Shown: positions 1,830 through 29,059 of the stretch, one piece after another
Numbering within the stretch: position 1 is the first letter of the stretch
Layout of the letters: each line of letters starts with the position of its first letter
Source: Clostridiales bacterium
Lineage (GTDB): Bacteria; Bacillota; Clostridia; Lachnospirales; Lachnospiraceae
Assembly: GCA_029007785.1 (NCBI GenBank)
Contig: JAQXIM010000137.1
Span: 4,429 to 68,428 of the forward strand
Direction: 5' to 3'
DNA length: 64,000 bases
The notes under the pieces: model-generated
The model's input: only the letters and a program-made list of their open reading frames with translations
Told to the model about the DNA's origin: nothing
Database searches by the model: none
Position numbers and translations under genes: made by a program

Positions 1830-1955
1830 GATAAACAAGAAAGGAAACAAAAGAAACAAAACAAACAAGGCAAACCAAGGAAACAAGGCAAACCAAGGAA
1901 ACAAAGCAAACAAAGGAAACAAAGCGAACAAAGGAAATAAAGGAAACAAAGGAGA
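1830..1955. repeat. About 7 tandem units of 18 nt (9-nt sub-period CAARGNAAA). The tract is nearly T-free and ends in the SD of the YbaK-like gene.
   Basis: Units caaggcaaaccaaggaaa (1866-1883 and 1884-1901, identical), caaagcaaacaaaggaaa, caaagcgaacaaaggaaa and taaaggaaacaaaggaga (1938-1955), followed by acacc ATG at 1961. Confidence 0.9.
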
Positions 1956-1960
1956 ACACC

Positions 1961-2434
1961 ATGGCAATAGATAAAGTAAAAGAGTATTTGAAGCAGTATG
2001 GTATGGAGAATAGAATTCAGGAGTTTGAAGTGTCCAGTGCCACCGTGGAACTGGCTGCCAAGGCAGTAGGGGTGGAGCCCTGTCGAATTGCGAAAACCTT
2101 GTCTTTTATGGTAAAGGAAGGGCCTATTCTTGTTGTTGCGGCAGGCGATGCCCGGATTGATAATAAGAAATATAAAGCTCAGTTTCATACAAAGGCTAAA
2201 ATGCTGACAGCGGAGCAGGTGTTGGAGCTGATTGGACATGCTGTTGGAGGGGTTTGTCCCTTTGGTATTAAGGATGGCGTAACGGTTTATCTGGATGAGT
2301 CGTTGAAACGGTTTGAAACGGTTTTTCCTGCCTGTGGAAGTGCCAACAGTGCCATTGAATTGACGATACCGGAACTGGAAGAATGCTCACGCTATGAAGC
2401 GTGGGTAGATATCTGCAAAGAAGAAGTCGAATGA
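1961..2434 (+). CDS. YbaK/EbsC-type aminoacyl-tRNA deacylase domain protein
   Basis: 157 aa. The pattern TVELAAKAVGV...IAKTL.F...GPILVVAAGDARID.KK...GGVCPFG is typical of the YbaK/ProX editing domain. Confidence 0.8.
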   Translation: MAIDKVKEYLKQYGMENRIQEFEVSSATVELAAKAVGVEPCRIAKTLSFMVKEGPILVVAAGDARIDNKKYKAQFHTKAKMLTAEQVLELIGHAVGGVCPFGIKDGVTVYLDESLKRFETVFPACGSANSAIELTIPELEECSRYEAWVDICKEEVE

Positions 2435-2457
2435 GAATGTTTCTTTTCCGAAACACA

Positions 2458-2512
2458 AGAAAGCCTCTCCCTTTGATGTAAAAGATCATTCAGAGGAAGA
2501 GGCTTTCTTTTA
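2458..2512. terminator. Hairpin between the convergent YbaK-like and PucR genes
   Basis: agaaagcctct (2458-2468) pairs with agaggctttct (2498-2508) and is followed by tttt. Confidence 0.5.
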
Positions 2513-2598
2513 TGATGGATATGCAGCCATAAGAATCAGATATCTTTATGATTTTATGATGGATATGCAGCCGTAAGAATCAGATATCTTTATGAAAT
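2511..2598. repeat. 44-nt direct repeat, two tandem copies (42/44 identical), abutting the PucR stop codon
   Basis: tatgatggatatgcagcc[a/g]taagaatcagatatctttatga occurs at 2511-2554 and 2555-2598. Confidence 0.9.
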
Positions 2599-3771
2599 TC
2601 AGGAGGTTTCCTCGAAAATTTGCCGGAGCTGAGAGGTCAGGGAAATGACTTCATGAAAGCGAATGGGATCCTGCTCCAGGCCAAGGGCATGTTTGATTTT
2701 ATTCATGCGATAACGAACTGTGTTTTCATGCTGGAATGTCTGTGCTGCCGTTTTTTTATAGTCTCCCGCATTGGCGACAAAAAGTTCTGCCGTTTTCAGA
2801 AAATCATTCACGGATTCACCGGATACATGTTTGCTGACAGTAGTCACATAGGCCTGATAGAAATCACGGGCTTCTCGGGAATCTCGGACCGAAAAAAGAA
2901 GCTGCTCCGGATTCAGGGGCTCATAATTATAGCGGAAAGCATTTGTGGAAATAGCAGTCCGCAGGGCACTTCCGCCTTCTTCCAGAACCTGTCGGATCTC
3001 TTCCTTTTTATGGATGCGGCTTACACCAATATGGATATCGGAAAGATGATTTCCCAGATTTTCAATCACATGACTGCAATGAAGCAGCAGATTTTCTTCA
3101 TCTGCATCACTGAGGATGAAAGTCAAGTGATTTTCCAGAACAAGAATCTGGGAAGGAGAAGCCTGATATTTTTGAAGAAGTTCCAGGGCAGAAAATTCCG
3201 TGTGGAAGGTTCCCTTGGCAAAAACAGCAGCAATGTAGGAGTCCAGGAGTGGTGACATGTCATGGAGAAGATCCTGCTGTTCCAATTTGCTGTGACTTAA
3301 TCGTATGTGTTCCAGTCGAAGAGTATTCAGGGTATTGGCATTATTTATGAAAAGATAGCGGTTTATTTCATTCATGATTACAGCATAGGATATACTCTCA
3401 CCAAGAACAACCAGAGGAAAAGCATGCTCATCACAGAACTGCAGTACTTCCTCTGTCAGGACTTCCAGATGACCGGTGGGAACAATAATCAATCCCGCAC
3501 ATTGATAATAAATGAAGCTTTCCAGATAGTTCATGAGCTGTGGGTCATGGACATGAAATTGATCCAGACAGGAAATATATACATCATCCTTTTCCAAAAT
3601 ACCGTCATGAATGATATCAGGATGATAGTGACAATCGCAGACAGAAACCTGTCTGACAGCATGATCCAGTCCGTTTTCCCCCGCCAGAATTTGATATCCC
3701 TGAAAACGATGACTTTTTAATATTTCTCGAAATGATACTTCCATACTCTTGATGGTACATAAATGTACCAC
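2599..3771 (-). CDS. PucR/CdaR-family transcriptional regulator
   Basis: 390 aa. The C-terminal PucR-type HTH reads KKTAAQTFQHENTVRYRMNKIKHALGL. Confidence 0.8.
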   Translation of the reverse strand: MVHLCTIKSMEVSFREILKSHRFQGYQILAGENGLDHAVRQVSVCDCHYHPDIIHDGILEKDDVYISCLDQFHVHDPQLMNYLESFIYYQCAGLIIVPTGHLEVLTEEVLQFCDEHAFPLVVLGESISYAVIMNEINRYLFINNANTLNTLRLEHIRLSHSKLEQQDLLHDMSPLLDSYIAAVFAKGTFHTEFSALELLQKYQASPSQILVLENHLTFILSDADEENLLLHCSHVIENLGNHLSDIHIGVSRIHKKEEIRQVLEEGGSALRTAISTNAFRYNYEPLNPEQLLFSVRDSREARDFYQAYVTTVSKHVSGESVNDFLKTAELFVANAGDYKKTAAQTFQHENTVRYRMNKIKHALGLEQDPIRFHEVISLTSQLRQIFEETS

Positions 3772-3963
3772 TCATCCTTTCTTTCAATCCCATAGATCTT
3801 CATATAAATAAATGAAATCAAAACACTTGTACGAGTGGATTGGCCTATCTATGTATTTTTATTGTACCACATAATAATTTTTTCGTGTATGAAAAATTAG
3901 CAAACTGATCATGCGGAAATACAGGTTTTCGATCATTATGAATGGGTAATGATCAATAAACCA

Positions 3964-3997
3964 GAGAAATCCGCTCTTTAGGGAAGAGCGGATTCTC
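3964..3997 (-). terminator. Hairpin downstream of the TrpB2-like gene
   Basis: gagaaatccgctct / agagcggattctc inverted repeat, 30 nt after the stop at 4027. Confidence 0.55.
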
Positions 3998-4026
3998 AGG
4001 AGTTTATTCATAAAATAATGCTTGTA

Positions 4027-5409
4027 TTATTCATTTCCGGGAAAGGCCGGGATGGCATTTAAGCTGGGTTTCAGATCCTCGTCGCTGGGAATTTCATCGT
4101 GCATAGTACGATTATTGTACTGTTCATAAGCCAGCATATCGAAATAACCGGTTCCTGTGAGACCGAAAAGGATAGTTTTTTCTTCGCCGGTTTCTTTGCA
4201 TTTCAATGCTTCATCGATGGCAGCGCGGATGGAGTGACTGCTTTCCGGTGCCGGGAGAATGCCTTCGTATTGGGCAAAGATAGTGGCAGCTTCAAATACG
4301 GAAGTCTGCTCTACGGTTCTGGCTTCCATAAAGCCGTCATGATACAACTGAGACAGAATCGGGCTCATGCCGTGGAAACGAAGACCTCCGGCATGGTTGG
4401 GAGAAGGAATGAATCCGCTTCCCAGGGTGTACATTTTTGCCAGAGGGCATACCATACCGGTGTCGCAGAAATCGTATACAAATTTGCCGCGGGTAAAACT
4501 GGGGCAGGAAGCCGGTTCTACGGCAATAAAGCGATAATCTCGTTCGCCGCGCAGTTTTTCACCCATGAAAGGAGCAATCAAGCCGCCAAGATTGGAGCCG
4601 CCGCCGGCACAGCCGATAATAATATCCGGTACAACACCGTATTTGTCCAAAGCTTTTTTTGCTTCCAGGCCGATTACGGACTGGTGAAGCAGTACCTGAT
4701 TCAGTACGCTTCCCAGTACATAGCGATAACCGGGAGCAGAGGTGGCTGCTTCTACTGCCTCGGAGATGGCACAGCCAAGGGAACCGGTGGTACCGGGGTG
4801 TTCTGCCAGAATTTTTCTTCCTACAGCAGTTGTATCGGAAGGGGAAGGCGTTACGGAAGCTCCGTATGTACGCATTACTTCACGGCGGAAGGGTTTCTGT
4901 TCATAGGAAACTTTAACCATGTATACTTTGCAGTCCAAACCGAAATAAGCACAGGCCATGGATAAAGCAGTACCCCACTGTCCGGCTCCGGTTTCCGTTG
5001 TAACACCTTTCAGTCCCTGCTTCTTTGCATAATAAGCCTGGGCAATGGCGGAATTCAGTTTATGGCTGCCGCTGGTATTATTACCTTCGAATTTATAGTA
5101 GATCTTTGCCGGTGTTCCCAATGCTTTTTCCAGGTTGTAGGCACGGACAGTGGGAGAGGGGCGATACGTTTTGTAATATTCCTGAATTTCTTCGGGAATA
5201 GGAATAAAAGCATCGGTATCATTAAGTTCCTGATCAATCAGATCATCACAGAATACACCGGCCAGTTCTTCTTTTGTCATGGGCTGAAGAGTACCGGGAT
5301 TCAGCAAAGGAGCCGGTTTTTCCTTCATATCAGCACGCATATTGTACCAGGAAGTGGGAATTTCTTTCTCTTCTAAGTAGATTTTGTAAGGAATTTTTTT
5401 CTCTGTCAT
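4027..5409 (-). CDS. TrpB-like PLP-dependent enzyme (tryptophan synthase beta, type 2 / TrpB2 family)
   Basis: 460 aa. PLP-lysine motif NNTSGSHKLNSA, glycine loop GCAGGGSNLGG, and the long N-terminal extension typical of TrpB2. Confidence 0.85.
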   Translation of the reverse strand: MTEKKIPYKIYLEEKEIPTSWYNMRADMKEKPAPLLNPGTLQPMTKEELAGVFCDDLIDQELNDTDAFIPIPEEIQEYYKTYRPSPTVRAYNLEKALGTPAKIYYKFEGNNTSGSHKLNSAIAQAYYAKKQGLKGVTTETGAGQWGTALSMACAYFGLDCKVYMVKVSYEQKPFRREVMRTYGASVTPSPSDTTAVGRKILAEHPGTTGSLGCAISEAVEAATSAPGYRYVLGSVLNQVLLHQSVIGLEAKKALDKYGVVPDIIIGCAGGGSNLGGLIAPFMGEKLRGERDYRFIAVEPASCPSFTRGKFVYDFCDTGMVCPLAKMYTLGSGFIPSPNHAGGLRFHGMSPILSQLYHDGFMEARTVEQTSVFEAATIFAQYEGILPAPESSHSIRAAIDEALKCKETGEEKTILFGLTGTGYFDMLAYEQYNNRTMHDEIPSDEDLKPSLNAIPAFPGNE

Positions 5410-5486
5410 TTGGTTTTACCTCCCGCATTTTCATTATGTTGAGATCAGAATATTTTGATTTCAACATTTTTATGGGATTAGGCAAA

Positions 5487-5750
5487 TAAAAAAGCCCTTA
5501 TCCCATACACGAATTGTGTTGGGACAAGAGCGATAACTCCTGCGGTGCCACCCAATTTGATGCAATGCATCCACTCAAGGCATTCTGACAAATGCCGCCT
5601 TTTGATAACGAAGAGGAACTCCGGCTCACCTACTTTATCTTCAGTTTGCTCTCCGGGACCCATTCCAATGGAGGCTGTCTGCATCGGTCACACCATTCCG
5701 ATACTCTCTGGGAGACAGGGATTCCTTGTACTTACATCCCATCAACGATT
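5487..5750 (-). promoter_or_regulatory. T-box leader (tRNA-sensing riboswitch), probable Trp specifier, controlling the TrpB2-like gene
   Basis: Minus-strand elements are a GA/K-turn (TGATGggatgtaAGTA), an AGAGAG bulge, a GGTGTGA distal loop, GAA-UGG-G (UGG at 5660-5662), and the T-box AAATTGGGTGGCACCGCA (5541-5558). A terminator hairpin (about 5494-5534) and a U-run (5488-5493) follow. Confidence 0.85.
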
Positions 5751-5756
5751 TCCTGC

Positions 5757-5785
5757 ATTTTATCATGATAAAGTGGTAGTGTCAA
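5757..5785 (-). promoter_or_regulatory. Sigma-A-like promoter for the T-box/TrpB2 transcript
   Basis: The minus strand reads TTGACA (5780-5785), a 17-nt spacer, then TAAAAT (5757-5762). Confidence 0.65.
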
Positions 5786-6097
5786 GTAGTGAAAACAGAA
5801 AAAGTTAAAAAAAATTTGAGATGTCGGACAAAAAAATAATACAAATAAAGGTGACGTAATACGCATGGAATCAGACGGTGAAATCCGGTAACTTGCAAGA
5901 GAAATAATATGGATAGGTGAATCGTCCTTTCATCATTATCAGGGTTATGGTATAATTTTACGGAGGCTGCAGTGGGGGAAAGAAACAGAACTCATGAAAA
6001 AAAGCAGAACATAAATGAAATTGGATAAATATTAAAAATTGTTCATGGTCCGGGAATAAAAATGACAAAAATTATTCCTGAAAAACGGAAAAACGAA

Positions 6098-6128
6098 TTG
6101 ACTTTCCTGCTGCCGGAAGGTGTAGACT
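6098..6128 (+). promoter_or_regulatory. MerR-type promoter with a 19-bp spacer upstream of the membrane-tethered MerR gene
   Basis: TTGACT (6098-6103), spacer ttcctgctgccggaaggtg (19 nt, dyad TTCC..GGAA), then TAGACT (6123-6128). Confidence 0.6.
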
Positions 6129-6148
6129 GATTCCAGGGAGGTGAAAAG

Positions 6149-6799
6149 GTGCATATCAATGAAGTAGAGCGTTTGGTTGACATTACGAAAAAGAATATTC
6201 GTTTTTATGAGGAGCAGGGGCTGCTCCAGCCGGCAAGAAATGAAGGAAATCGTTATCGGGAGTATTCCGAAGAGGATGTGGCCAAACTGAAAAAAATCAA
6301 ACTGCTTCGAATGCTGGGGGTTCCTATCAGCGAAATTCGACGGGTCATAGAAGAGAATATTCCCCTGGAAGATTGTCTGGAACGTCATATGATATCTCTG
6401 CGGCGTCAGGAAAAAAGTCTTCAAAAGATGCAGGAAATGTGTCGGGAAATTATGGACGCCAGGGAAATTTTTTCTGAGATTGATGCAGAATCCTATCTGA
6501 TCCGAATGAATGAGATGGAAAAAGAAGGGGTGATGTTTGTGGAAACAAAGAAAGAAGATAAACGGAGCAAAAAGAAAAGTGCCATTATCGCCGGCAGCGT
6601 TATGATCCTTCTTATGATATTGTGCATTTGTCTGTTTGCCTGGTGTGCCTGGGGAGTTGCAGAGGATCCTATGCCTGTTGGAATGTTTATAGCCTTTAGT
6701 CTTGGGATCATTGTTGTGATTGTAGGTGTGCTGCTGTCTTTGCGTATGCGGCTCAAGGAAATCGAGAAAGGGGAAATATATGAAGCTTCTAAATATTGA
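6149..6799 (+). CDS. MerR-family regulator with two C-terminal transmembrane helices (membrane-tethered)
   Basis: GTG start. MerR HTH (VERLVDITKKNIRFYEEQGLL, YREY), then a coiled region and hydrophobic stretches (AIIAGSVMILLMILCICLFAWCAW and GMFIAFSLGIIVVIVGVLLSL). Confidence 0.8.
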   Translation: MHINEVERLVDITKKNIRFYEEQGLLQPARNEGNRYREYSEEDVAKLKKIKLLRMLGVPISEIRRVIEENIPLEDCLERHMISLRRQEKSLQKMQEMCREIMDAREIFSEIDAESYLIRMNEMEKEGVMFVETKKEDKRSKKKSAIIAGSVMILLMILCICLFAWCAWGVAEDPMPVGMFIAFSLGIIVVIVGVLLSLRMRLKEIEKGEIYEASKY

Positions 6800-7091
6800 T
6801 TATGTGCCTGGAAAGGAAATTGAGGCACTGGAAATGGTGAAGGGAACCGTTGTTATGTCCAAAAATCTGGGAAAAGATTTTATGGCAGGAATGAAAACGC
6901 TGGTAGGCGGCGAGCTTTTTGGATATACGGAAATGCTGAATGAAGCACGTCAGATCGCCACGAAACGTATGGTAGATGAGGCGGAAGCTCTTGGGGCTGA
7001 TGCCATTGTTAATATTCGATATGGTTCTTCGGCTGTAATGAGCGGAGCTGCTGAGGTGGTTGCCTATGGTACGGCTGTCAAGTTTAAATAG
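6780..7091 (+). CDS. YbjQ/UPF0145 family protein (putative heavy-metal-binding domain)
   Basis: 103 aa. The motif GELFGYTEMLNEAR..A..RM...A.ALGADAIVNIRY is typical of YbjQ. SD gaaagggg lies upstream, and the start overlaps the end of the MerR gene by 20 nt. Confidence 0.8.
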   Translation: MKLLNIDYVPGKEIEALEMVKGTVVMSKNLGKDFMAGMKTLVGGELFGYTEMLNEARQIATKRMVDEAEALGADAIVNIRYGSSAVMSGAAEVVAYGTAVKFK

Positions 7092-7239
7092 AAGGATGAT
7101 TCCTTTCAGGTTTAAGGGATATTAACTCAAAACATATTTCAGCAGAGAAGGAAAGAATGTCCCTGCATTTCGAATAAAAGATTTTTTGCCGGGAAAAATA
7201 AATATCCATGCAAAAATCAGTATGGCAGGAGGCATTGTG

Positions 7240-7449
7240 ATGAAGAGTATACTAATTTGTGATACAACCAGAGAGGAAAGGGAAGAAATTATTCGCCAGT
7301 CTTTGGATTGCGGGGATGGCTGTGAAAATTGTTCCTCCTGTTGGCTGGGAGGAGGCAATCCCTTCGAGATGTATCAGCCCTATATTGATGGGGAAAAGGA
7401 AATCGCAGAAATCAACAGGGAATATCATGCCAGATATCTGCGTGGTTAA
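7240..7449 (+). CDS. Small Cys-rich hypothetical protein (69 aa, CGDGCENCSSC cluster)
   Basis: AGGAGG SD lies 7 nt upstream of the ATG at 7240, and a terminator follows immediately. No family was recognised. Confidence 0.5.
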   Translation: MKSILICDTTREEREEIIRQSLDCGDGCENCSSCWLGGGNPFEMYQPYIDGEKEIAEINREYHARYLRG

Positions 7450-7450
7450 A

Positions 7451-7501
7451 GAAGGAAGAAGATACCCGGTGGAAAACGGATATCTTCTTCCTTCTTTTTT
7501 C
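7451..7501 (+). terminator. Intrinsic terminator (may also serve the convergent MBL gene)
   Basis: gaaggaagaagata (7451-7464) pairs with tatcttcttccttc (7481-7494) and is followed by ttttttt. Confidence 0.8.
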
Positions 7502-7535
7502 AGTACATACAATTCTTTAAAACTGAGTGGGATCA

Positions 7536-8375
7536 TTAAAGCTGGATTTCCATACCGGAATAAAGGGCAGTCATACGATCTCCCATGATTTCCCGGAGCC
7601 ACTCAAAAGCAATCTGTCCGGTGCAGTGACCGGAATAAAAAACGGTGCCTTCCAAACGGTTCAATTCTTCGGCAACTTTCTGAACTTCTTCTTTTTCAAA
7701 CTGGCAGGTGCAGACTCCGTCGGGTCCCATCATATGGAAACCACCGAAGAAAGCCTTGATCTTTTTATCCGGGAATTTCTGATTGACTTCTTTTACAATA
7801 TTCTCAACTCCTCCGTGGGAACAGCTGTTGAATAAGACAAGGCCGTCTTCTTCCTCGAAAACAATGGTCTGTTCATGGGAAAAATCATCGATATGGATTT
7901 GTCCATTCTTTTCCACATACATATGGGCACGCTTTCCCCGGAGGGAGAGCTCTTTCGTCGTGTGGGGCAAAATATGAATACCATTTCCAAGGCTGCGATA
8001 TCCGTCCACATAAATCATACGATTCTCGTAGTTTTCCAGAACCTCGGAAGGGATTCCGATATATTTTTTCATATCACCAACGATTTTATAACAGCGACAG
8101 TATCCGGCACTTTTCTGAAGATAAACGCCGGCTTTTTCATTTGCTTTGAAAAAAGGAAGAAATCCGCCGGAATGATCATAGTGAGCATGGGACAGGAACA
8201 CCCCTTCCACCTCAGCCAGATTCAATCCCATTTTCCGGGCATTTTCGGTGTAAAGATCGGTTGCACCAGTGTCAACCAGATAATGATTTCCTTTGTAGGT
8301 AATCCATATGGAAAGGCCGTGTTCGCAGGCCATTCCGTTTTTTGCTGTATCCTCAACAAGAACTTTTACTTCCAT
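7536..8375 (-). CDS. MBL-fold metallo-hydrolase (COG1237-like)
   Basis: HxHxDH motif SHAHYDHSGG, and N-terminus VKVLVEDTA...EHGLSIWI typical of COG1237. An alternative upstream start is at 8414. Confidence 0.85.
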   Translation of the reverse strand: MEVKVLVEDTAKNGMACEHGLSIWITYKGNHYLVDTGATDLYTENARKMGLNLAEVEGVFLSHAHYDHSGGFLPFFKANEKAGVYLQKSAGYCRCYKIVGDMKKYIGIPSEVLENYENRMIYVDGYRSLGNGIHILPHTTKELSLRGKRAHMYVEKNGQIHIDDFSHEQTIVFEEEDGLVLFNSCSHGGVENIVKEVNQKFPDKKIKAFFGGFHMMGPDGVCTCQFEKEEVQKVAEELNRLEGTVFYSGHCTGQIAFEWLREIMGDRMTALYSGMEIQL

Positions 8376-8699
8376 AATGTTTCGTTTCCTCTCAGACAGA
8401 TTGTGTATCTTCATATACTTTTTCTGTTTTTTATCATAACATGAGAAAAATATCTCCGCAAGTGCTTAGAAATCTCCGGGCTCCGGGTATCCGGAACAGA
8501 TCTTCTTTTATATCTTCTTTTATATAAGATTGGAAATTTCATTATTATTAAAAATGTGATATACTCAAACGAGAATAACGCAGCTCTTTTCATGGCATGG
8601 AGATAAAATTCTCTTGAAACCAATGTCATATCATATATGAGTTGACTGACAAATGAGCTTAAAATGCAAAGTGCGGACAGCAAGAGGAGGGACAAGGAA

Positions 8700-9761: not shown

Positions 9762-9802
9762 AAAACAGAAAACGTAAGAAACGAAATAAAGGGGGACTAA
9801 TT

Positions 9803-11714: not shown

Positions 11715-12125
11715 ATGAGTGAACTGACATATAAGGTAAGGCTTCGAATCTATAAGGACGATCTGGTTTTCGGTCCTGGAATTGCCAGACTGATGCAGGG
11801 AATCGAAGAGACGGGCTCCATGTCGGAGGCTTGCCGGAGTATGGGGATGGCCTACTCCAAAGGCTGGAAGATTATCAAGCGGGCCCAGCAGGAACTGGGA
11901 TATCCCCTGATTGAGGGAACCAGAGGCGGAGCCAACGGAGGAAAAATGATTCTCACTGCCCAGGGAAAGGATTTTCTGGATCATTACCTTTCCTTTGAGG
12001 AAGCGGTGGAAAAAGCGGCGCAGGATTTATTTCTAAAACACATGACCGGATGGGAAAATCCATGCATTCCTATGGATCGGTCTGCAGAAAATAAGAATGT
12101 GAGAAAAACGATGGACGAAGCCTGA
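11715..12125 (+). CDS. ModE N-terminal-like winged-helix regulator
   Basis: GSMSEACRSMGMAYSKGWKIIKRAQQELGYPLIEGTRGGANGGKMILT resembles the ModE/LysR-type HTH followed by a G-rich turn. The ORF could start earlier, at 11637. Confidence 0.7.
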   Translation: MSELTYKVRLRIYKDDLVFGPGIARLMQGIEETGSMSEACRSMGMAYSKGWKIIKRAQQELGYPLIEGTRGGANGGKMILTAQGKDFLDHYLSFEEAVEKAAQDLFLKHMTGWENPCIPMDRSAENKNVRKTMDEA

Positions 12126-13351: not shown

Positions 13352-13453
13352 GCAATAGGAAAGATGAGGAAGACAAGTATGAAAAAGTGAGAAGGAGATA
13401 CGCCAGCGATTTGTGCCGCAATAGGAAAGATGAGGAAGACAAGTATGAAAAAG
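13352..13453. repeat. 36-nt duplication (period 66 nt) of the SD plus start-codon region of the MoeA-like gene
   Basis: gcaataggaaagatgaggaagacaagtatgaaaaag occurs at 13352-13387 and identically at 13418-13453. Confidence 0.95.
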
Positions 13454-14470
13454 ATGAAAACAGAAGAAGCCGTGGGGCAGGTTCTCTGTCATGATATCAC
13501 TCAGATTATTCCGGGTGTAACGAAGGATGCTGTATTTCGAAAAGGCCACATCATTCAGGAAGAGGATATTCCTGTCCTTTTGAGTGTAGGAAAGGATTAC
13601 ATTTATATCTGGGAAAATGACGAAAATATGCTGCATGAAAATGATGCTGCCCGGATTCTTTACGAGATGTGCAGAAATGACAATATGTATCCTTCGGAAG
13701 TAAAGGAAGGAAAGATCGAAATCCTTGCAGAATGCGATGGTCTTTTGAAGGTGGATCGTCAAAAGCTTTTTCAGGTCAACAGTCTGGGAGAAATGATGAT
13801 TGCCTCCCGTCATGGAAATACGGTGGTGCGGAAAGGGGACAAGCTGGCAGGTACCAGAATTATTCCGTTGGTAATTCAGAAAGAAAAAATGGCAAAGGCG
13901 CAGAATCTTTGTCAGGATCATCCGATTCTGACCCTTCTTCCTTTCAAAAAGAAAAAAGCTGCCGTTATTACCACAGGAAATGAAGTGTATTATGGAAGAA
14001 TTCAGGACAGCTTTACACCGGTAATTCGCCAGAAGCTGGCAGAGTATGACACGGAAGTCATTCGCCATCGGATTTTAGATGACAATCCGGAAAAGATTAC
14101 GGCAGAATGTCTGGAATCCATCAGAGAAGGGGCTGACCTTGTGATCTGTACCGGAGGCATGAGTGTGGACCCGGATGATAAGACGCCTCTGGCCATAAAG
14201 AATACTGGTGCAAGGATTGTATCCTATGGTTCACCGGTGCTTCCCGGTGCCATGTTTCTTTTGTCTTATTATCAGCACCGAATTCCGATTCTTGGTTTGC
14301 CGGGCTGTGTTATGTATGCAAAACGTACCATTTTTGATCTGGTTCTGCCCAGAATTATGGCGGATGATCCCATCACTGCAGACGAACTGGCTTCCCTGGG
14401 AGAAGGCGGCTTATGTCTGTCCTGTCCGGAATGTACATTCCCCAACTGTGGTTTTGGGAAAGGTTGGTAA
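13445..14470 (+). CDS. Molybdopterin-binding MoeA-like protein (MoCF_biosynth domain, C-terminal Cys cluster)
   Basis: TGGMSVDPDD motif in a MogA/MoeA-type fold, and C-terminal CLSCPECTFPNC. The GAGGAAG SD favours ATG 13445; the ORF opens at 13430. Confidence 0.8.
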   Translation: MKKMKTEEAVGQVLCHDITQIIPGVTKDAVFRKGHIIQEEDIPVLLSVGKDYIYIWENDENMLHENDAARILYEMCRNDNMYPSEVKEGKIEILAECDGLLKVDRQKLFQVNSLGEMMIASRHGNTVVRKGDKLAGTRIIPLVIQKEKMAKAQNLCQDHPILTLLPFKKKKAAVITTGNEVYYGRIQDSFTPVIRQKLAEYDTEVIRHRILDDNPEKITAECLESIREGADLVICTGGMSVDPDDKTPLAIKNTGARIVSYGSPVLPGAMFLLSYYQHRIPILGLPGCVMYAKRTIFDLVLPRIMADDPITADELASLGEGGLCLSCPECTFPNCGFGKGW

Positions 14471-15502: not shown

Positions 15503-15604
15503 AGACATGGGGATTACGAATGTTTTTTTGATTTTGAGAGTGGGAAGCAGGAACGGCGTTGGATTCATTTGTCAGGAAATTTATGAGATGCAGTAAAGAC
15601 AAAA

Positions 15605-15670
15605 GGATGGGATCAGGATGGAATCAGGACAGGATCAGGACAGGATCAGGATGGGATCAGGAGATAAGCA
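15605..15670. repeat. Six tandem 11-nt units GGAyrGrATCA (GGA-rich), with the last unit supplying the SD of the MOSC gene
   Basis: ggatgggatca ggatggaatca ggacaggatca ggacaggatca ggatgggatca ggagataagca, followed by tt ATG at 15673. Confidence 0.95.
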
Positions 15671-15672: not shown

Positions 15673-16113
15673 ATGGGAACGATAAAGGCAATTTGTATCA
15701 GTGAGAAGCGCGGAACGCCCAAATATAAAGTGAACCGTGCAGAATTTGTAAAGGATTGGGGGATTCGCGGGGATGCCCACGCAGGAAACTGGCATCGGCA
15801 GGTCAGCTTTCTTTCTTTTGAAAAGATCGAAGCCTTCCGTGCAAAAGGGGCCCAGGTGGATTTTGGTGCCTTTGGAGAAAATGTGATTGCCGATGGGTTG
15901 GATTTCAAAGAACTGCCGGTGGGAACACGTCTCCGCTGTGGTGATGTGGAATTCGTGATTACACAAATCGGAAAAGAATGTCACAGTCACTGTCAGATTT
16001 TCCGGAGAATGGGAGAGTGTATTATGCCCCATGAAGGTGTATTTGCTGTGGTGGAAAAGGGCGGCTGGATCCAGGTGGGAGATCAGCTGGAACAGCTCCC
16101 CACGATTCGGTAG
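15673..16113 (+). CDS. MOSC domain-containing protein
   Basis: 146 aa. GIRGDAHAG.WHRQVS, GENV...G, and a conserved late Cys region (IGKECHSHC). Confidence 0.8.
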   Translation: MGTIKAICISEKRGTPKYKVNRAEFVKDWGIRGDAHAGNWHRQVSFLSFEKIEAFRAKGAQVDFGAFGENVIADGLDFKELPVGTRLRCGDVEFVITQIGKECHSHCQIFRRMGECIMPHEGVFAVVEKGGWIQVGDQLEQLPTIR

Positions 16114-19850: not shown

Positions 19851-19858
19851 ATCAGCAT

Positions 19859-20030
19859 CAGATTTGATGGAGAGTAAAGATGCCGGGAAAAAATATAAGG
19901 ATGGTACAATGATTGGACAAAAACGTGCCGGATTCGATGGAGAATAGGTCTGCCGGGATAAAGTATAAGGATGATACAATAATGAGGCAGAACCGTGCCG
20001 GATTCGATGGAGAGTGAGAATACTGTGGCA
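19859..20030. repeat. 70-nt tandem repeat, about 2.4 copies (roughly 77 percent identity between copies 1 and 2). The third copy runs into the yqeC 5' region.
   Basis: Copies start at 19859, 19929 and 19999 (c[a/g]gatt[t/c]gatggaga...tgccggga...tataaggatg.tacaat...cgtgc). Confidence 0.9.
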
Positions 20031-20072
20031 AAAATATATGGAAAAAATTCCGAGAGTAAAAATGGAACATGG

Positions 20073-20786
20073 ATGGAAATGCCCCCTGACAGGGCGTTTC
20101 CCTTTTTACAGGAAAAAAATCATGTGATTTCCCTGACGGGCGGAGGAGGAAAGACGACACTGATATACTGGCTGGCAGAATATTATGCAAAGCAAGGATA
20201 TCGAACCTTAATTTCTACGACAACCCATATGCAGCAGCCCAGGAAGGATGTGTGGGTACGGGATTGGAAGGATCTGGAGGAACACTGGAAACAGGAAGGG
20301 ATTGCTGTGATGGGAGAAGCCTGTGAGAATGGAAAGATTCGTCAGCCGGAATATACAGTTTTGGAGAGAGGTATCGAAATGGCAGATGTTGTTCTTCTGG
20401 AAGCAGACGGAGCAAAAGGGCTGCCCTGCAAGGTGCCTTCTTCCCGGGAACCGGTGATTTTGCCCCAATCGGATCTTGTGATTGGCGTCATGGGTCTGAG
20501 TGCTCTGGGGAAAACGCTGGAAGAAACGTGTTTCCGTCTGGAAGAAACCATGGCTTTCTTAGGAAAAGAAAAAGACCAGCGATTGACAGAGGAAGATGCA
20601 GCACGAATTCTTTCTTCGGAAAAAGGAACAAGAAAAAGTGTTGGAAACAGAGCATATTATGTCGTTCTGAATCAGTGCGACGATCCGGAGCGTTTCCGGA
20701 TGGGAATGGGAATTCTTCGCCGACTGGAAGACCGGGGGATAGCCGGAGGTGTGATGACCTGCCTGAAGGACGAGGCAGAATGGTGA
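20073..20786 (+). CDS. yqeC: YqeC-family selenium cofactor biosynthesis protein (P-loop)
   Basis: VISLTGGGGKTT P-loop about 20 aa from M at 20073, then LLEADGAKG and VVLNQCD. In-frame alternative starts are at 20007 (ATG) and 19995 (GTG), both inside the repeat. Confidence 0.75.
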   Translation: MEMPPDRAFPFLQEKNHVISLTGGGGKTTLIYWLAEYYAKQGYRTLISTTTHMQQPRKDVWVRDWKDLEEHWKQEGIAVMGEACENGKIRQPEYTVLERGIEMADVVLLEADGAKGLPCKVPSSREPVILPQSDLVIGVMGLSALGKTLEETCFRLEETMAFLGKEKDQRLTEEDAARILSSEKGTRKSVGNRAYYVVLNQCDDPERFRMGMGILRRLEDRGIAGGVMTCLKDEAEW

Positions 20787-20816: not shown

Positions 20817-20912
20817 GGATAAAAGGAAACAGAAAGCGAAGGAAATAAAAAGCGACGGAAAACAAGATAGACGGAAAACAAGATAGATGGAAACAGAAAG
20901 GGATAGCGAAAA
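20817..20912. repeat. Purine-rich tract with roughly 16-nt periodicity upstream of moaC (two perfect units plus degenerate units)
   Basis: gacggaaaacaagata occurs at 20854-20869 and 20870-20885. Flanking units are GAnGGAAA-like. ATG is at 20915. Confidence 0.85.
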
Positions 20913-20914
20913 CG

Positions 20915-22122: not shown

Positions 22123-22221
22123 TTAAATATAATCGATTATATTAAAAGTCTAGAATATAATGTTTAAAAGAGATCTCGAGTAATCCTAAGACAAGTACTG
22201 AATTCAACGGAAAGGAGAAGA

Positions 22222-23115: not shown

Positions 23116-23263
23116 GCATCAAATATTCCAGCGGATACTCAAATGTAAGAAGTTTCTATATAATTGAAAACAAGATACATGGAGTATTCTACTGCATCTA
23201 CAAGAATAGTGCCGCATGATGAATTCAAGGGATTATGCGGCACTACAGACATAATTATGTTCA

Positions 23264-23315
23264 CAGCCAGTTTTTTCTCTTAGACTCTGTAGAATATAAG
23301 AGAAAAAACTGACTG
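23264..23315. repeat. 19-bp inverted repeat (one mismatch) with a 14-nt loop at the IS66-relic breakpoint
   Basis: cagccagttttttctctta (23264-23282) pairs with taagagaaaaaactgactg (23297-23315). Confidence 0.85.
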
Positions 23316-23564
23316 TTCAGTGACAGTGTGGACGGAGCCAACACTAGTGCTGTGGTCTATATGATGGTCGAGATGGCAAAGAACTATGAGCTGAATATAT
23401 TCAGATATCTAGAGTATTTGTTGGAGCAGTGGCCTGACAGTAGTTGGAGAGATGAAGAACTGGTCGAGTTAGTTCCCTGGAGTGAGAAATTCCAATTTAT
23501 CAAAAACGGAAGGGAAATTAAAGTAAATTACTCCAATATCGTATTGTTCGGGGTCATTTTATAA
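23298..23564 (+). pseudogene. IS66-family transposase C-terminal remnant (truncated, with an in-frame TGA)
   Basis: The frame reads KRKN*LFSDSVDGANTSAVVYMMVEMAKNYELNIFRYLEYLL...LVPWS, compared with the IS66 motif GRKNWLFS..GA.ASA..YS..ETAK.N.LN...YL..LL...LLPW. TGA at 23310 sits where Trp is expected. No N-terminal transposase part is present. Confidence 0.7.
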
Positions 23565-23604
23565 AGACTGCTTTTATATTTTTTGTTTACGTTATATCGG
23601 AGGA

Positions 23605-24345
23605 GTGATTTCTATAGAAAAGGTACAACAATTTTTTCGTAAAAATGTTATAGTGATTATTATTGGACTGATACTGTTTGGTATCATCTATCGGGATGTT
23701 TTTGTACCAGACATATCCTATGTCGGAGCCCTGTATAGTGAGCGCGAGGGTGAAAAATGGCTTTCCGAAAATTACACGGAGTCATACCAATTACTGTCAG
23801 ATAGAATAGGGTCCCGGTATACTTCTGCTGACAGTATATATTACTATGAGATGGTATTGACAGAGACGTATACTTACCCCAGTCGGGAGACAGAATACAG
23901 AATTCTGTATGCTCTTGCAGCGGATCAGTTAGAGAATGGTGTGAAAACTTCAGGTGCTGCAGATGTTACAATATATTTCATCGCGATGAAACAGTCTGAG
24001 GATGGAAAATGGGAAAGAACCCAGGATATTCAGCTGCAGGATGTGGAGGTCACTCTGATGATGTTTGATCCGGTTCAATTGGAGTCGGTTGCCAGTGACA
24101 CCTGTCTGGTGGAGGAGAAGGACAGCAGGCAAAGCGAACACAAAGTATATTCTGTAAAATCAATGAATCAGAAAGATGCAGATATACAGGAAATATCTTC
24201 ACTGCACGTTACGTATACGACAACAGAACCGTTAAAGGAAGACATGGGGATATTCCAGTTGGATACACGATGGATCCCGACAGTAAATCACAAAAAATCC
24301 CAGACGTTGACGACGGTTTGTTTTCCTTTTTTATTGTGTGAATGA
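23605..24345 (+). CDS. Membrane-anchored hypothetical protein
   Basis: GTG start after a GGAGGAG SD. One N-terminal TM helix (VIVIIIGLILFGIIY). No family was recognised. Confidence 0.55.
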   Translation: MISIEKVQQFFRKNVIVIIIGLILFGIIYRDVFVPDISYVGALYSEREGEKWLSENYTESYQLLSDRIGSRYTSADSIYYYEMVLTETYTYPSRETEYRILYALAADQLENGVKTSGAADVTIYFIAMKQSEDGKWERTQDIQLQDVEVTLMMFDPVQLESVASDTCLVEEKDSRQSEHKVYSVKSMNQKDADIQEISSLHVTYTTTEPLKEDMGIFQLDTRWIPTVNHKKSQTLTTVCFPFLLCE

Positions 24346-24461
24346 ATCCTGTTCCAGCAGCTTTTTTACAGAGAATCCATTGTGAAAAAGCTGGAATGTA
24401 TTATTCTTTCCGGAACAGTTTATAATGTGATAATAAAGTTAAGAAAAACATCACAAAAGAA

Positions 24462-24488
24462 TTAGCACTCACCTATTGACAGTGCTAA
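24462..24488 (+). promoter_or_regulatory. CIRCE operator (HrcA binding site) upstream of hsp20
   Basis: TTAGCACTC-acctattga-CAGTGCTAA matches 17 of 18 positions of the consensus TTAGCACTC-N9-GAGTGCTAA. A TATAAT box lies at 24421-24426. Confidence 0.85.
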
Positions 24489-24613
24489 CAACAAGTGGTA
24501 AAACATAATCGAACAAAGGAAAAGGGACTCAGAAAGAAAAATCGACAGCCCCCAAACGCTCCGGGTTCATAAAGAAACATCAAAATGGACATATTTATAA
24601 GGAGGAATGGATT

Positions 24614-25054
24614 ATGTTGATGCCTAGTTTATTTGGAGAAAGCTTATTGGATGACTTTTGGAACATGGAAATGCCGACAGTCAGAAGTTACACTTCTGCA
24701 AAGAACCCCTACGATCTGATGACCACCGATGTGAAAGAGACGGAAAACGGATATGAGATCCATATGAATTTGCCGGGAGTCAAGAAAGAAGATGTGAAGG
24801 CAGAATTGAAAGATGGTTATTTGACCATTCAGGCTTCCACCGCTTCCAATCAGGAAACGAAAGACAATGATGGAAAATATATTCGCCGAGAACGTTACAG
24901 CGGTTCCTGCAGCAGAAGTTTCTTTGTAGGAAAAGAAGTAACTCAGGAAGAGATCAAAGCCAGGTTTGAGGATGGTGTCCTGAAATTGGATATTCCGAAA
25001 AAAGAAGCAAAGAAAGTAGAAGAACAGAAGAAGTACATCACTATAGAAGGTTAA
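24614..25054 (+). CDS. Hsp20/alpha-crystallin small heat-shock protein
   Basis: The alpha-crystallin domain reads DVKETENGYEIHMNLPGVKKEDVKAELKDGYLTI...RFEDGVLKLDIPK. Confidence 0.9.
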   Translation: MLMPSLFGESLLDDFWNMEMPTVRSYTSAKNPYDLMTTDVKETENGYEIHMNLPGVKKEDVKAELKDGYLTIQASTASNQETKDNDGKYIRRERYSGSCSRSFFVGKEVTQEEIKARFEDGVLKLDIPKKEAKKVEEQKKYITIEG

Positions 25055-25156
25055 GTATTGTGATAGGAGAAGAAAGGGGCCGGTTTTACCGGCCCTCTTT
25101 CTTATCGAAAAAAACAGAATGGAAGAGATGGATTTATCGAGGCAGGAGGTGATAGT

Positions 25157-26206
25157 ATGAAAGGAAAAAGAGATTATTATGAAATTCTGGGGGTCACAAA
25201 AGACGCAGATGCTGCAGTAATCAAGCGTGCTTACCGAAAGTTGGCGAAAAAATATCACCCTGACAGTAATAAAGGAAACCAAAAGGCGGAAGAAGTCTTT
25301 AAAGAAATCACAGAGGCTTATGGAGTCCTCGGCGATGAAAAAAAGAGAAAGCTGTATGACCAGTATGGTTTTGCAGCCTTTGATGAGACCGGAGCGGGGG
25401 CTGGATATCAGGATAACCAGGGCTTTGGCGGCGGTTATGGAAATGGTAACTTCTATCGGAGGGAAGGACCGAATGGTTATCAGGAATTCCATTTCGAAGG
25501 AAACGGTGGGGATATGGATGATATCCTGAAGAACTTTTTTGGCGGTTCCTTCCATGGCAGTGATTTTGGATCTTTCCATGGCTTTCGGAATTCCGGTTCT
25601 TCCCAGAGAGGAGGAAATGGTTCTTTTGCACGAAAGGGTATGGATTTGAATGCGGATATGGAGGTTACCTTTGATGAGGCGGCCTTCGGAGGTACGAGAA
25701 AGATTCATTTGCAGGAAAGTGATGGGACGGAAAGAGCGTATGAAGTGCATATACCGGCAGGAATTGCTTCCGGTCAGGTAATTCGCATGAAAGGAAAAGG
25801 AAATCCGGGATCCGGAGGCGGTGAAAATGGGGATTTGATGCTTAAGGTGACGGTAAAGGATAAGCCCGGTTTCCACCGAGAGGGTCAGGATGTCTATACG
25901 ACAGTACGCGTTCCCTTCGCAACGGCCGTTCTGGGCGGTGAGGTCACCATCGGCACCATTTATGGAGATGTGCGCTGCAATGTGAAAGCAGGAACTCAGT
26001 CCGGCAGCAAAATACGTTTGAGAGGAAAAGGTATCGCTTCCATGGATCATCCTCAGACCCGGGGTGATCAGTTTGTTACGGTTCAAATTGAAGTGCCCAG
26101 AAATCTGGGAGAAGAGGAGAAACGGAAGCTGCGGGAATTTGATGCAGCCTGTGAGCGGAATGGTCATACTTCCAGCCGGGGCGGAGCCCGGGCTGCACGA
26201 ATGTAA
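25157..26206 (+). CDS. DnaJ-class co-chaperone lacking the zinc-finger domain (CbpA-like, type II)
   Basis: J domain DYYEILGV...KKYHPD, a G/F-rich linker, and C-terminal substrate-binding domains. No CxxCxGxG repeats are present. Confidence 0.85.
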
Positions 26207-26326
26207 AAAAGAAAATACACCGCGCACCTGGTGGTATCCTTGATATGGCATAAATTTTCTTTTATAACAAACTTTTAAAATTTTTTCATATATTGGCTGG
26301 CCGACAATACCTCTTGCATAACATGG

Positions 26327-26356
26327 AACCGCTGTCTGAAAAGGCAGCGGTTTTTT
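26327..26356 (+). terminator. Intrinsic terminator 120 nt downstream of the DnaJ-like gene
   Basis: aaccgctg ... cagcggtt stem followed by tttttt (26351-26356). Confidence 0.75.
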
Positions 26357-26556
26357 CAAGAAGAAACTTCGTCCCTATTGCATAAAATTCTCCGGGAGGA
26401 TACGCATACCGCTCCAAAAGAAGTTTTTCTGTAAGCAGCCACGCGGCAGTGCGAGACTTCCGCGAGTCGAACTCTTTGTTCAAATTGCTTTCCTCTAGCA
26501 AATGTAGTAGACTGAAAATAAAGATGGATTCATAGATGACCAGGGGGTGAACAGTT

Positions 26557-28953
26557 ATGGAAACTCTTGCTTTGCTTTCTCAATTTGTTTTTGTCGCTGC
26601 AAATTTATCGGAGAAGGTAGGAGAGCATATTTTTGGAAAGGCTCTGGACGCGGTTCTGGACAAGATGATCGAGAATCCCAGAAAAAAGCCGGATGCAGAC
26701 TTGAGCGGAAATGATCTTCTGGTGTGGCAATTTTGTGATTGTTTGTGTAAAGCACATAAGGAAACCTGTGAGATCTATGGGTGGGAGTATTCAGAGCAAG
26801 CGATTCGCCAGTTTATTTCATCCGAAGAAAATGCAGAATGGTCAGAGTGTTTTTCAGAACAAAAGCTGAAACAGTTTCTAAAAAGACTGGTGGGGGATGA
26901 GGCAGCGGAAATTGTTACAGACCATGTATTAAATACATGGTTCCGTTGCTTTCAGCAGGAAGTAGCCTGTCATCTGGAACTATATAACTGGCAATCGATG
27001 TTGACAAAGAGTGTAAGGTTTGAAGACGCTTCGTCCGGTATCCAGACAGGTGAAATAAAATCCAGCTTATCGGTTACGAAGGAGGAAGCGGCATCCTTCG
27101 TATCATTGTGGAAGGAAGTGATGAATTCTTCGCTCCCCGGCAGAGATGCGGATCAAAAGAAATGGGGAGATGCCATCAAATCCTGTCAGAATTTGATAGA
27201 AAGTATTCTTGAAAAGATGAAAACCGGAACACTTTACGACTTTACGCTTGATTTGCAGTCGTATGATCCGGAAACTTTTCCTGCCTATCAGTGCTGCTGC
27301 AGCGGAAATCCGGTTAAGGAAATATCCTTTGAGGGGACGGAACTTCCGTTATTTTATGCAGATCTCATTCTGCGAGAGGCAGACTTGATTCTTGGAGAAG
27401 ATTATTGGCTGCGCATGGATTCCTCCATCTATACAATAAATAATCGATTTGTAAAGCTGGAACGTCTTCAGTCCCATTTGAAAGAAGCAAAAACAATAAT
27501 TCAGACAGGAAAAGAGGATTGTCGGTGGGCCCTGGAAACCGGGGAAGCTGTTCTCCGAGCAAAGAGCAGTATAGAGAAATGGGATAGAGTGTGCTGTGAT
27601 CAACTGGAGATCTGTGGTACACTTTTAGAGGAGGTCAGAAGTGGTTTGATGATAAACCGTCCGGATCAAAAAAATCTGGTATCCAGGCCGGTTTTCAGCG
27701 GTGCTTTCGACAGTGTTTTGGGACAAGAGGAATCCAATCTGGAGAAATTGGAATTATCTGCCATGAAACATATAGCCAGCGGTCATACGATTCTGCTTCA
27801 GGGACCGCAGATTATGGATAATGCCAATTTTCTGCGGCTGCTTCAGTACGAGGATATCCGCAAATTATGTAAAAATGGATTTTTCGTATATTCTGCATAT
27901 GGAAATCTTCATACACCCAGAGATTTTCTGATGGACAGACTTGGCAAAACGGAAAAATCCAGTGATCAGTATTTCAAGTTCAGCAGTTTGGATGCATATC
28001 AGAATGATGAGTATGGTGCAGCACTTCGTGAAACTGTGAGACGAGCATTAAGTGATCGGAAGCAGTATGGTGATTTTCGAGAGAAGATTCCATCGGAAAT
28101 ACAGAATTCCGTGGAAGAGCTATATGAATCATACCAATTGGCAGCGGAGTGTTTTGAAGAAGCAGAATCCATGAAGTATCATCAGTCAGCGAAGAAGCGA
28201 ACGATGAAATCCTTTATTAATTACTATAGTTTTCAAAGTCCCGAATTGAGTCTGGATACATTGATTGATAGTCGGCTGAGAGAATTGGAAGAGGATGAAA
28301 AGGAATGCAGCCAGCCAGGACGGAAGGAAATCCTGGAAAGATTCCGAATCATTCAGGGACAAATAAATGAAGAGAAGAAAAGAAAGACGGCAGGAGCCTG
28401 GATGCGGAGTAATTATTATGACACTCTCAACGCATGGAAAACAGAAACAGAAGATTTTAAGATACAGGAAAGCCTGGAGCTTTTCGAAAAACTCATCGAC
28501 AGATGCTATCTTCTGTTCAGAGGATTTCTAAGCTGCAATAGTGTAGCCTTGCCGGAAACAGAGCCCAGATTGAGATTGTATCATTCTCGAAAAGATCTTC
28601 AAAAAAAGACAAAGGTGGACTATATGTACGATTCGTACAAAAGAAGAAGCACCATTCCCCATCGCAGCTTCATTTCCTGGGATACGCTTATGGAACAGGC
28701 ACTGAATATTCGTGGAATTATTAATGATCCCGGTATTCCCATGGAAAATCAGAAGGAAAAGATTTTTCAGGAAACGGAAATCACCTGTGATTTTGTGCTT
28801 GATCATATTGGAGGAAGTCTTGTGGCTTCCGAAGCCAATATTTTAACGATTAAGAAAAACAAAGTGGCGATGACGGATCGTAAAGAGAAAGATACGGATA
28901 TAGAACTCAGTCATATGGAAGTGGTGGATGTGAATCTGGAAATGGAAGGCTGA
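26557..28953 (+). CDS. Large hypothetical protein (798 aa, predicted mostly helical, Cys-rich N-terminal third), orphan
   Basis: Uninterrupted 2.4-kb ORF with a GGGGGTG SD-like element. A possible promoter is TTGCTT-17-TAGACT at 26485-26513. I could not recognise any conserved catalytic motif. Confidence 0.7.
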   Translation: METLALLSQFVFVAANLSEKVGEHIFGKALDAVLDKMIENPRKKPDADLSGNDLLVWQFCDCLCKAHKETCEIYGWEYSEQAIRQFISSEENAEWSECFSEQKLKQFLKRLVGDEAAEIVTDHVLNTWFRCFQQEVACHLELYNWQSMLTKSVRFEDASSGIQTGEIKSSLSVTKEEAASFVSLWKEVMNSSLPGRDADQKKWGDAIKSCQNLIESILEKMKTGTLYDFTLDLQSYDPETFPAYQCCCSGNPVKEISFEGTELPLFYADLILREADLILGEDYWLRMDSSIYTINNRFVKLERLQSHLKEAKTIIQTGKEDCRWALETGEAVLRAKSSIEKWDRVCCDQLEICGTLLEEVRSGLMINRPDQKNLVSRPVFSGAFDSVLGQEESNLEKLELSAMKHIASGHTILLQGPQIMDNANFLRLLQYEDIRKLCKNGFFVYSAYGNLHTPRDFLMDRLGKTEKSSDQYFKFSSLDAYQNDEYGAALRETVRRALSDRKQYGDFREKIPSEIQNSVEELYESYQLAAECFEEAESMKYHQSAKKRTMKSFINYYSFQSPELSLDTLIDSRLRELEEDEKECSQPGRKEILERFRIIQGQINEEKKRKTAGAWMRSNYYDTLNAWKTETEDFKIQESLELFEKLIDRCYLLFRGFLSCNSVALPETEPRLRLYHSRKDLQKKTKVDYMYDSYKRRSTIPHRSFISWDTLMEQALNIRGIINDPGIPMENQKEKIFQETEITCDFVLDHIGGSLVASEANILTIKKNKVAMTDRKEKDTDIELSHMEVVDVNLEMEG

Positions 28954-29059
28954 GGATATATATCCATTCATGCGTCCCGGATTTGTGCAGAAGGAAAAGT
29001 ATTGAAAATGGAAGTCTGAGATCCATACATCCACATATACATCCTGGAAGTGTGTAAAC
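28940..29059. repeat. Degenerate tandem duplication (period 66 nt, about 70 percent identity by eye) spanning the 3' end of the 798-aa gene
   Basis: aaatggaag[g/t]ctgag...atcca...cc.gga..tgtg occurs at 28940-28992 and 29006-29059. Confidence 0.6.

Follow-up and report, generated by a model that had tools for sequence, protein, structure and literature searches.

In the present study, a 64,000-nucleotide (nt) stretch of DNA from a pig-gut Lachnospiraceae-like bacterium (hereafter the window) was analysed, and seven tandem-repeat loci, designated A to G, are described, every one of them in a spacer at a gene boundary. Four of these arrays are placed within one selenium/molybdenum (Se/Mo)-cofactor operon with the gene order selD, yedF-like, cysteine-desulfurase-like gene, helix-turn-helix gene, yqeB, moeA-like, moaA, MOSC, xdhC, modA, modB, modC, yqeC, moaC and mog: locus C occupies the yqeB/moeA-like junction, D the moaA/MOSC junction, E the modC/yqeC junction and F the yqeC/moaC junction. 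The proteins concerned were identified using Pfam and NCBIfam as YqeB, a MoeA-like MoCF domain protein, MoaA, MOSC, the ModC ATPase, YqeC and MoaC. The remaining loci are outside the cluster, with A and B on either side of a YbaK-like gene and G after an unannotated gene of 798 amino acids (aa). Whole-unit differences in length between strains were observed at six of the seven loci (at B, as judged from a unit joint and its depth), and we consider it likely that the arrays represent unstable spacer repeats of the variable number tandem repeat (VNTR) type together with young tandem duplications, and neither scars of cluster assembly nor a new control system.

Repeats were detected using Tandem Repeats Finder (TRF) and a direct-repeat search of the window, which recovered all seven loci that a sequence-only reading of this DNA had placed at gene boundaries (Table 1). 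The gene names proposed there for the four Se/Mo junctions agree with Pfam and NCBIfam, and the proposal that the repeats take in ribosome-binding (Shine-Dalgarno, SD) and start sites or stop codons was confirmed for copy 2 of C and copy 3 of E (SD and start), copy 1 of G (stop) and the last units of A and D (SD). The copy counts required correction, as six units had been counted at D and 2.4 at E, where 5.4 units and 2.2 units plus a diverged third copy were found, and the 66-nt period noted at 28940 is a real duplication (score 33) but a degenerate one. The strain evidence was drawn from Logan or ENA contigs of pig-gut and gut metagenome runs from other studies and years, in which this organism was detected. 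These public runs carry X-numbers and the comparator loci carry L-numbers; X1 is the best-matching run and may be the source sample, L001 is the same strain as X7, and L002 is a third strain.

Table 1. Repeat loci of the window and their lengths in other strains, relative to the window.
Feature	Position	Strand	Repeat	Detection	Other strains
A	1840-1958	+	18-nt unit AAAGGAAACAAAGCAAAC x6.6 (9-nt sub-period x13), nearly T-free	TRF score 152; direct-repeat search	+18 nt, one extra unit at 1908 (X3 and X5 contigs); about -91 nt, five units, 1818-1929 skipped with 21 nt in place (X7 and X10 contigs)
25-nt segment	1733-1757	+	single copy in window, same spacer as A		tandem duplicate (X7, X10)
B	2508-2595	not assigned	44 nt x2, one base different (97-98% identical)	TRF score 169	variant unit-to-unit joint on a 74-nt unitig (X3, X5); X3 unitig depth about 5x flanks
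C	13352-13453	+	exact 36-nt copies, 13352-13387 and 13418-13453, 66-nt spacing	direct-repeat search, 100% identity	exactly -66 nt (X7, 1419-nt contig)
D	15604-15662	+	11-nt unit AGGATGGGATC x5.4	TRF score 83	-11 nt, one unit (X3 contig spanning 15110-15726)
E	19861-20070	+	three 70-nt copies at 19861, 19931 and 20001	TRF score 205	one 70-nt copy fewer, 73 nt skipped with 4 nt between (X9)
F	20818-20903	+	purine-rich AAGGAAACAGAAAGCG x2.4, then GACGGAAAACAAGATA x2.5	TRF scores 57 and 73; direct-repeat search	-16 nt, one unit (L001/X7, X5, X6); both alleles in X5
G	28937-29054	+	degenerate duplication, period about 66 nt, 28937-28987 vs 29003-29054, about 72% identical		no length change (X3, X7)

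Anatomy of the repeat loci

Array A constitutes the leader of a gene for a YbaK/EbsC-like tRNA-editing domain (ATG 1961); it ends 2 nt before the ATG, and its last unit provides the SD of that gene, AAGGAG. Array B, whose sequence is unique within the window, is bordered by a bidirectional terminator hairpin (about 2461-2507) on one side and by the stop codon (2599-2601, minus strand) of a PucR-like regulator gene on the other.

Locus C was not called by TRF. An SD (GAGGAAG) and an ATG are present in both of its copies; the true initiation region of the MoeA-like gene is copy 2, as relatives align from residue 1 of the open reading frame (ORF) starting at 13454, and copy 1 is a decoy SD and start that opens a 3-codon ORF (ATG AAA AAG TGA). 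The 30-nt filler between the copies (13388-13417) contains a strong SD-like AAGGAG and has no second copy in the window; a templated insertion or a remnant might account for it. A 96-nt unitig of X1 covers copy 1, filler and copy 2, and the duplicated form was observed only in that run. In the moaA/MOSC spacer, the SD of the MOSC gene, AGGAG (ATG 15673), is the sixth, partial unit of array D at 15659-15664, and the start at 15673 is backed by a profile alignment that begins at the residue encoded there.

Locus E is the yqeC initiation region in triplicate. The TRF call comprises 19861-20015, and the more diverged third copy, which continues to 20070, contains the true SD (GGAGAG), the start codon GTG 20025 and the first 15 or so codons. 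Copies 1 and 2 are decaying versions that give chained upstream ORFs (uORFs) of 26 codons, each of which, as the 70-nt period is not divisible by 3, ends 8 nt beyond the next ATG. The start of yqeC was assigned from homology: the N-terminus in the window, (M)AKIYGKN, matches the MKIYGKD of the nearest homologues, which conserve an N-terminal MKIYGK...AFPFL.EK.HVISL segment. The stored gene call is a protein of 220 aa from GTG 20124, and homology places the start at GTG 20025 (253 aa; gene 20025-20786); the stored start thus seems to be 99 nt too late, misled by the junction repeats. A GC-rich hairpin of 10 bp at 20075-20101, followed by CTTTTT, resembles an intrinsic terminator and is retained in L001, with a perfect A-T pair in place of the G-T wobble of the window. 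A role as a terminator separating yqeC from the repeats was considered and rejected, since the homologues place the hairpin within the coding sequence for the conserved YqeC N-terminus.

Locus F consists of two adjoining 16-nt arrays (20823-20893) framed by a 22-nt pair 64 nt apart (20818/20882), with 11 nt of unique sequence (20904-20914) between the locus and ATG 20915. At locus G, copy 1 contains the final codons of the 798-aa gene at 26557-28953, stop included (CTGGAAATGGAAGGCTGA), upstream of a NUDIX-domain gene (ATG 29098), and local alignment of the two copies scores 33, where shuffled sequence reaches 13.1 +/- 2.3. C, E and G each duplicate the 5' or 3' end of the gene at their junction. 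When the sequence outside the repeats in the spacers of A, B, D and F was compared with the flanking genes as possible decayed copies, the scores were not significant (z <= 1.7), and only C scored (z = 23). No unit is common to two loci, and AGGAAACA and the F unit are essentially confined to their own arrays. The likeness of the A unit to the first F unit (AAAGGAAACA..AAGCGA) was also considered, and it is no greater than purine-rich sequence gives.

Copy number differences between strains

The alleles listed in Table 1 differ from the window by whole units. For array B, the variant joint and the unitig depth together indicate 3 or more copies in X3/X5, and contigs of X7 and X9 that begin at 2552 are weakly compatible with a single copy; thus, B probably spans 1 to 3 or more copies across strains. 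The two F alleles in X5 may reflect a strain mixture. In the spacer of array A, a 25-nt insertion resembling the adjacent sequence was observed at 1732 in X10 and at 1753 in X7, in each case a tandem duplication of 1733-1757. As A and B are longer in X3/X5 and the 25-nt duplication is present only in X7/X10, units have been both gained and lost relative to the window. At G, the duplication is old, degenerate and fixed. Loci A to G are head-to-tail copies above chance, with whole-unit strain differences at all but the invariant G (probable at B), as is the case for VNTR loci or minisatellites, and the earlier description of the arrays as slippage-prone tracts is upheld with regard to their instability; the comparison across related strains proposed with it revealed variable copy numbers, not invariant ones. 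Moreover, independent metagenome assemblies contain the arrays, showing that these are not assembly artefacts. Scans of metagenome contigs using YqeC peptides and moaC 5' DNA returned no match, and no match was obtained in exact-protein look-ups with the YbaK-like and MOSC proteins.

Relatives and the age of the arrays

The nearest YqeC relatives are on two sister contigs (L083 and L084; 62% identity), in which the order xdhC-modA-modB-modC-yqeC-moaC is kept. The modC/yqeC spacer is 48-49 nt in these contigs, yqeC and moaC overlap by 13-23 nt, and no arrays are present. Likewise, moaA adjoins MOSC in almost all relatives with a junction of 5-20 nt, compared with 170 nt in the window. That sister taxa sharing this gene order have compact, repeat-free junctions indicates that the arrays are young, lineage-specific expansions in old adjacencies, and this largely excludes scars of modular assembly as their explanation. 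At the yqeC/moaC junction of L002, a 16-nt array of different sequence was observed, indicating repeated turnover of that junction.

Junction repeats of a similar kind are also present in the other Clostridia loci L005 and L027. Three further examples are in or near the Mo/Se clusters of their loci: in L026, a 17-nt duplication takes in the moaC ATG (2158-2201); in L003, a 14-nt unit is repeated 3.4 times just upstream of yedF (12002-12049); and in L064, a 12-nt x12 array ends at a start codon (5624-5832). The sister contig L084 contains a purine-rich 18/36-nt repeat (AGAAAACCGCCAGGAGAG x3.9, positions 1-85) within the xdhC reading frame, which is probably an in-frame linker expansion between two XdhC domains.

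Density of the arrays

Shuffled windows contained 0.2-0.4 arrays (score >=50) per 64 kb, against 8 observed. The density of all arrays is 0.125 per kb in the window and 0.061 per kb in a comparator set of 80 loci (1.26 Mb); for non-coding arrays, the corresponding densities are 0.094 and about 0.02-0.028 per kb, where the enrichment is given as a range because a crude ORF-based split into coding and intergenic DNA puts arrays A and D under spurious ORFs. The excess over the comparators, about 3-5 fold in a window that was chosen because of its repeat density, is real but moderate. The density had been described as atypical, which is true relative to the comparator set but not to every locus, as some other Clostridia loci, e.g. 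L064, are equally dense.

Constraint, structure and effect on start sites

Between L001 and the window, copies 1 and 2 of locus E share 83.7% identity, compared with 93.7-95.1% for the flanking coding DNA, and these upstream copies diverge approximately three times as fast as the genes beside them. The two copies in L001, where the array has 2.2 copies, are 92% alike mutually and 83-84% identical to their positional counterparts in the window; all four pairings range from 79 to 87%, and the window copies are only 79% alike. The greater likeness of the L001 copies to each other than to their counterparts points to conversion, or to loss followed by re-duplication. The first uORF is truncated in L001 through a 1-nt insertion, and neither the peptide nor the frame of the uORFs is conserved.

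The units are upstream of the SD, and the distance from SD to start is constant, kept either by unique sequence or by the last unit. The modelled unpaired probability of the start regions differs by <= 0.09 between the observed alleles. No secondary structure is predicted for the arrays, whose centroid structures are essentially open, and promoter prediction across the arrays yielded none. GGA motifs are present, and in A and D the last such motif overlaps the SD; no hairpins are predicted in the arrays. When one 11-nt unit is removed from D, only a non-conserved upstream ATG goes out of frame. The arrays are neither within an ORF nor between promoter or SD elements, the positions typical of a simple sequence repeat (SSR) switch, and the combination of a conserved leader ORF and a terminator before the gene, as in leader-peptide attenuation, is absent from E.

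Neighbouring features

GC skew is positive over the whole window (1-64000) and AT skew in 13 of 16 bins; the plus strand is purine-rich and bears most genes, as expected of the leading strand in a Bacillota genome, and within the arrays the mRNA strand is the purine-rich one. In an Rfam scan, the junctions had no match to a riboswitch or to any other RNA family; the sole match in the window is a T-box leader (RF00230, 97.4 bits) at 5517-5754 (minus strand), upstream of a gene for a pyridoxal phosphate-dependent enzyme at 4027-5409 (minus strand). A RecD2/YrrC-type helicase fused to a C-terminal DUF4186 domain (887 aa) is encoded at 29817-32480, and the long ORFs at 24644-26359 (minus strand, 571 aa) and 26557-28953 (plus strand) have no Pfam or NCBIfam match.

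Discussion

Several known systems resemble these arrays in part. Bacterial VNTRs or minisatellites, such as the intergenic MIRU/VNTR (MIRU, mycobacterial interspersed repetitive unit) of Mycobacterium tuberculosis used for multiple-locus VNTR analysis (MLVA) typing (PMC12817950; reviewed in PMC3899988), are likewise head-to-tail repeats of 9-70 nt that are mostly intergenic. As in VNTRs, the alleles of close strains differ by whole units, and the longer and purer tracts vary while the degenerate G is fixed; unlike MIRU/VNTR, several arrays are gathered in one cofactor operon of a gut commensal, and several units copy a gene's own SD, start or stop. The contingency SSRs of Neisseria and Haemophilus (PMC5084427, PMC12721329) are also hypermutable tracts near gene starts with heritable, reversible length variants. 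However, contingency SSRs are placed in an ORF or between promoter elements and switch on and off mostly surface or restriction-modification genes, whereas the present arrays are upstream of the SD, leave frame and spacing untouched, and precede housekeeping cofactor genes. Locus E shares variable repeats in uORFs with a downstream hairpin and T-run (20075-20101) with the pil1 leader-peptide attenuation system of Streptococcus gallolyticus (PMC3894217), but its uORFs are not conserved between strains, and the hairpin is within the conserved yqeC coding region and is not a leader terminator. Finally, the TAACTGA repeats of marine Beggiatoaceae, for which a post-transcriptional regulator (S1, Csp or CsrA) has been proposed, are also short direct repeats located a few nucleotides upstream of starts at many loci (PMC4679880). 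There, one heptamer recurs at 169 loci; here, each locus has its own unit (9/18, 11, 16, 44, 66 or 70 nt), indicating that there is no common recognition motif.

Herein, we propose that the arrays arise and persist through slippage and a filter of survival. Purine-rich, low-complexity leaders around SD sites would offer many short direct repeats, between which slipped-strand mispairing or unequal recombination might duplicate a segment; once two copies are present, whole units might be gained and lost at a high rate. Whole-unit change through slippage or recombination is established behaviour of tandem repeats (PMC3899988), and the whole-unit changes between strains together with the homogenisation within the E array of L001 suggest such a process here. 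A duplication that is wholly in a spacer, or that extends over a start or stop, would leave one intact gene and a harmless fragment, whereas duplications within genes would be purged by selection, so that the survivors would be found at boundaries. The structure of C, E and G, in each of which one intact gene end is accompanied by a copy, is as this survivorship model predicts. Extra copies may then decay at an approximately neutral rate. The effects on expression are probably small: the leader might become longer while staying unstructured, or it might acquire a decoy start or a short uORF.

Several observations weigh against this proposal. A simple tandem duplication leaves the 30-nt filler of C unaccounted for. 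When the 16-nt indel is set aside, the F spacer of L001 matches that of the window at 98% identity, above its coding flanks, which could reflect constraint or recent recombination. The density exceeds that of the comparators about 3-5 fold, and seven junctions with arrays are found in the first 30 kb compared with 0-1 in the next 34 kb, with four in one operon, while arrays are missing from the compact operons at 32-37 kb and 50-58 kb; a purely uniform neutral process does not account for such clustering. In addition, no RNA run covering the region was found.

Among the other explanations, it is unlikely, in our judgement, that the arrays act as an adaptive translational rheostat, in which copy number would tune downstream output through SD-like standby sites, decoy starts, chained uORFs or the distance to the upstream stop, and would let a population vary the stoichiometry of the Se/Mo-cofactor maturation proteins. 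In other bacteria, variable repeats are known whose copy number affects expression (PMC12817950, PMC3894217), and the four arrays share a single, functionally coherent operon. The units of A, D and F hold SD-like AAGGA, AGGA or CGGA, the last unit of A and D being the SD itself; copy 1 of C retains an SD and ATG with its 3-codon ORF, and the E copies yield uORFs that run just past the next start, while the conservation of the F spacer would also fit. However, the SD-to-start spacing is never altered by units upstream of the SD, the modelled shift in accessibility is small, the E uORFs have lost peptide and frame in L001 while copies 1 and 2 diverge well beyond the flank rate, and compact or overlapping junctions suffice in sister taxa. 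That the arrays are selected, evolvable "dials", with the gain and loss of units setting the relative translation of the MoeA-like protein, MOSC, YqeC and MoaC strain by strain, appears rather improbable.

The regulator CsrA binds A(N)GGA, often overlapping the SD, and leader GGA motifs, one of them over the SD, might recruit or titrate a repressor of this type. Array D contains approximately 10 GGA/GGGA motifs in an 11-nt register that ends in the SD, each unit of A and F also has one GGA, and a similar idea was proposed for the intergenic repeats of Beggiatoaceae (PMC4679880). Nevertheless, GGA is to be expected in any SD-derived unit and hence in duplicated SD regions; the arrays share neither unit nor spacing, are predicted to be unstructured, without hairpin loops to present the motifs, and the orthologous leaders (5-49 nt or overlapping junctions) have no arrays, while copy number drifts between strains. 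A platform for an RNA-binding regulator, as suggested in the sequence-only reading, is thus very unlikely. Recent modular assembly of the Se/Mo cluster was suggested in the same reading as the source of the repeats; consistent with this, cluster gene order differs between families (e.g. moaC-mog comes first in L003-L007), and yqeC is flanked by E and F. However, the moaA/MOSC and xdhC-modABC-yqeC-moaC adjacencies are old and compact, with 48-49 nt and overlapping junctions in the sister contigs, the arrays vary among strains of one gene order, and A, B and G are outside the cluster, so that this explanation is largely refuted and highly improbable. An assembly artefact, such as collapsed or duplicated strain haplotypes in a metagenome-assembled genome, might be suspected because X1 unitigs break at several arrays and the duplicated C is seen only in what is possibly the source sample. 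This suspicion does not hold for A, D, E and F, which recur with shifted copy numbers in contigs of X3, X5, X6, X7/L001, X9 and X10 from other studies and years, and the E copies are too dissimilar to be strain haplotypes; an artefact is hardly credible.

The reading of the arrays as VNTR-type repeats and young duplications has several consequences. For annotation, junction duplications give rise to spurious starts upstream and shift gene calls; the longest ORFs of MOSC and the MoeA-like gene begin inside the repeats. If it were true that copy number tunes translation in a cofactor operon, contingency-type variation would extend from the surface antigens of pathogens to the core metabolism of commensals, and the "dials" would represent graded, operon-internal contingency variation in a metabolic pathway of a gut commensal, although the present findings do not require such tuning. 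The six variable loci are ready-made strain markers for VNTR typing of an uncultured pig-gut Lachnospiraceae species, and the window offers a natural example of tandem duplications that seem aimed at gene boundaries because only those sparing one intact gene survive.

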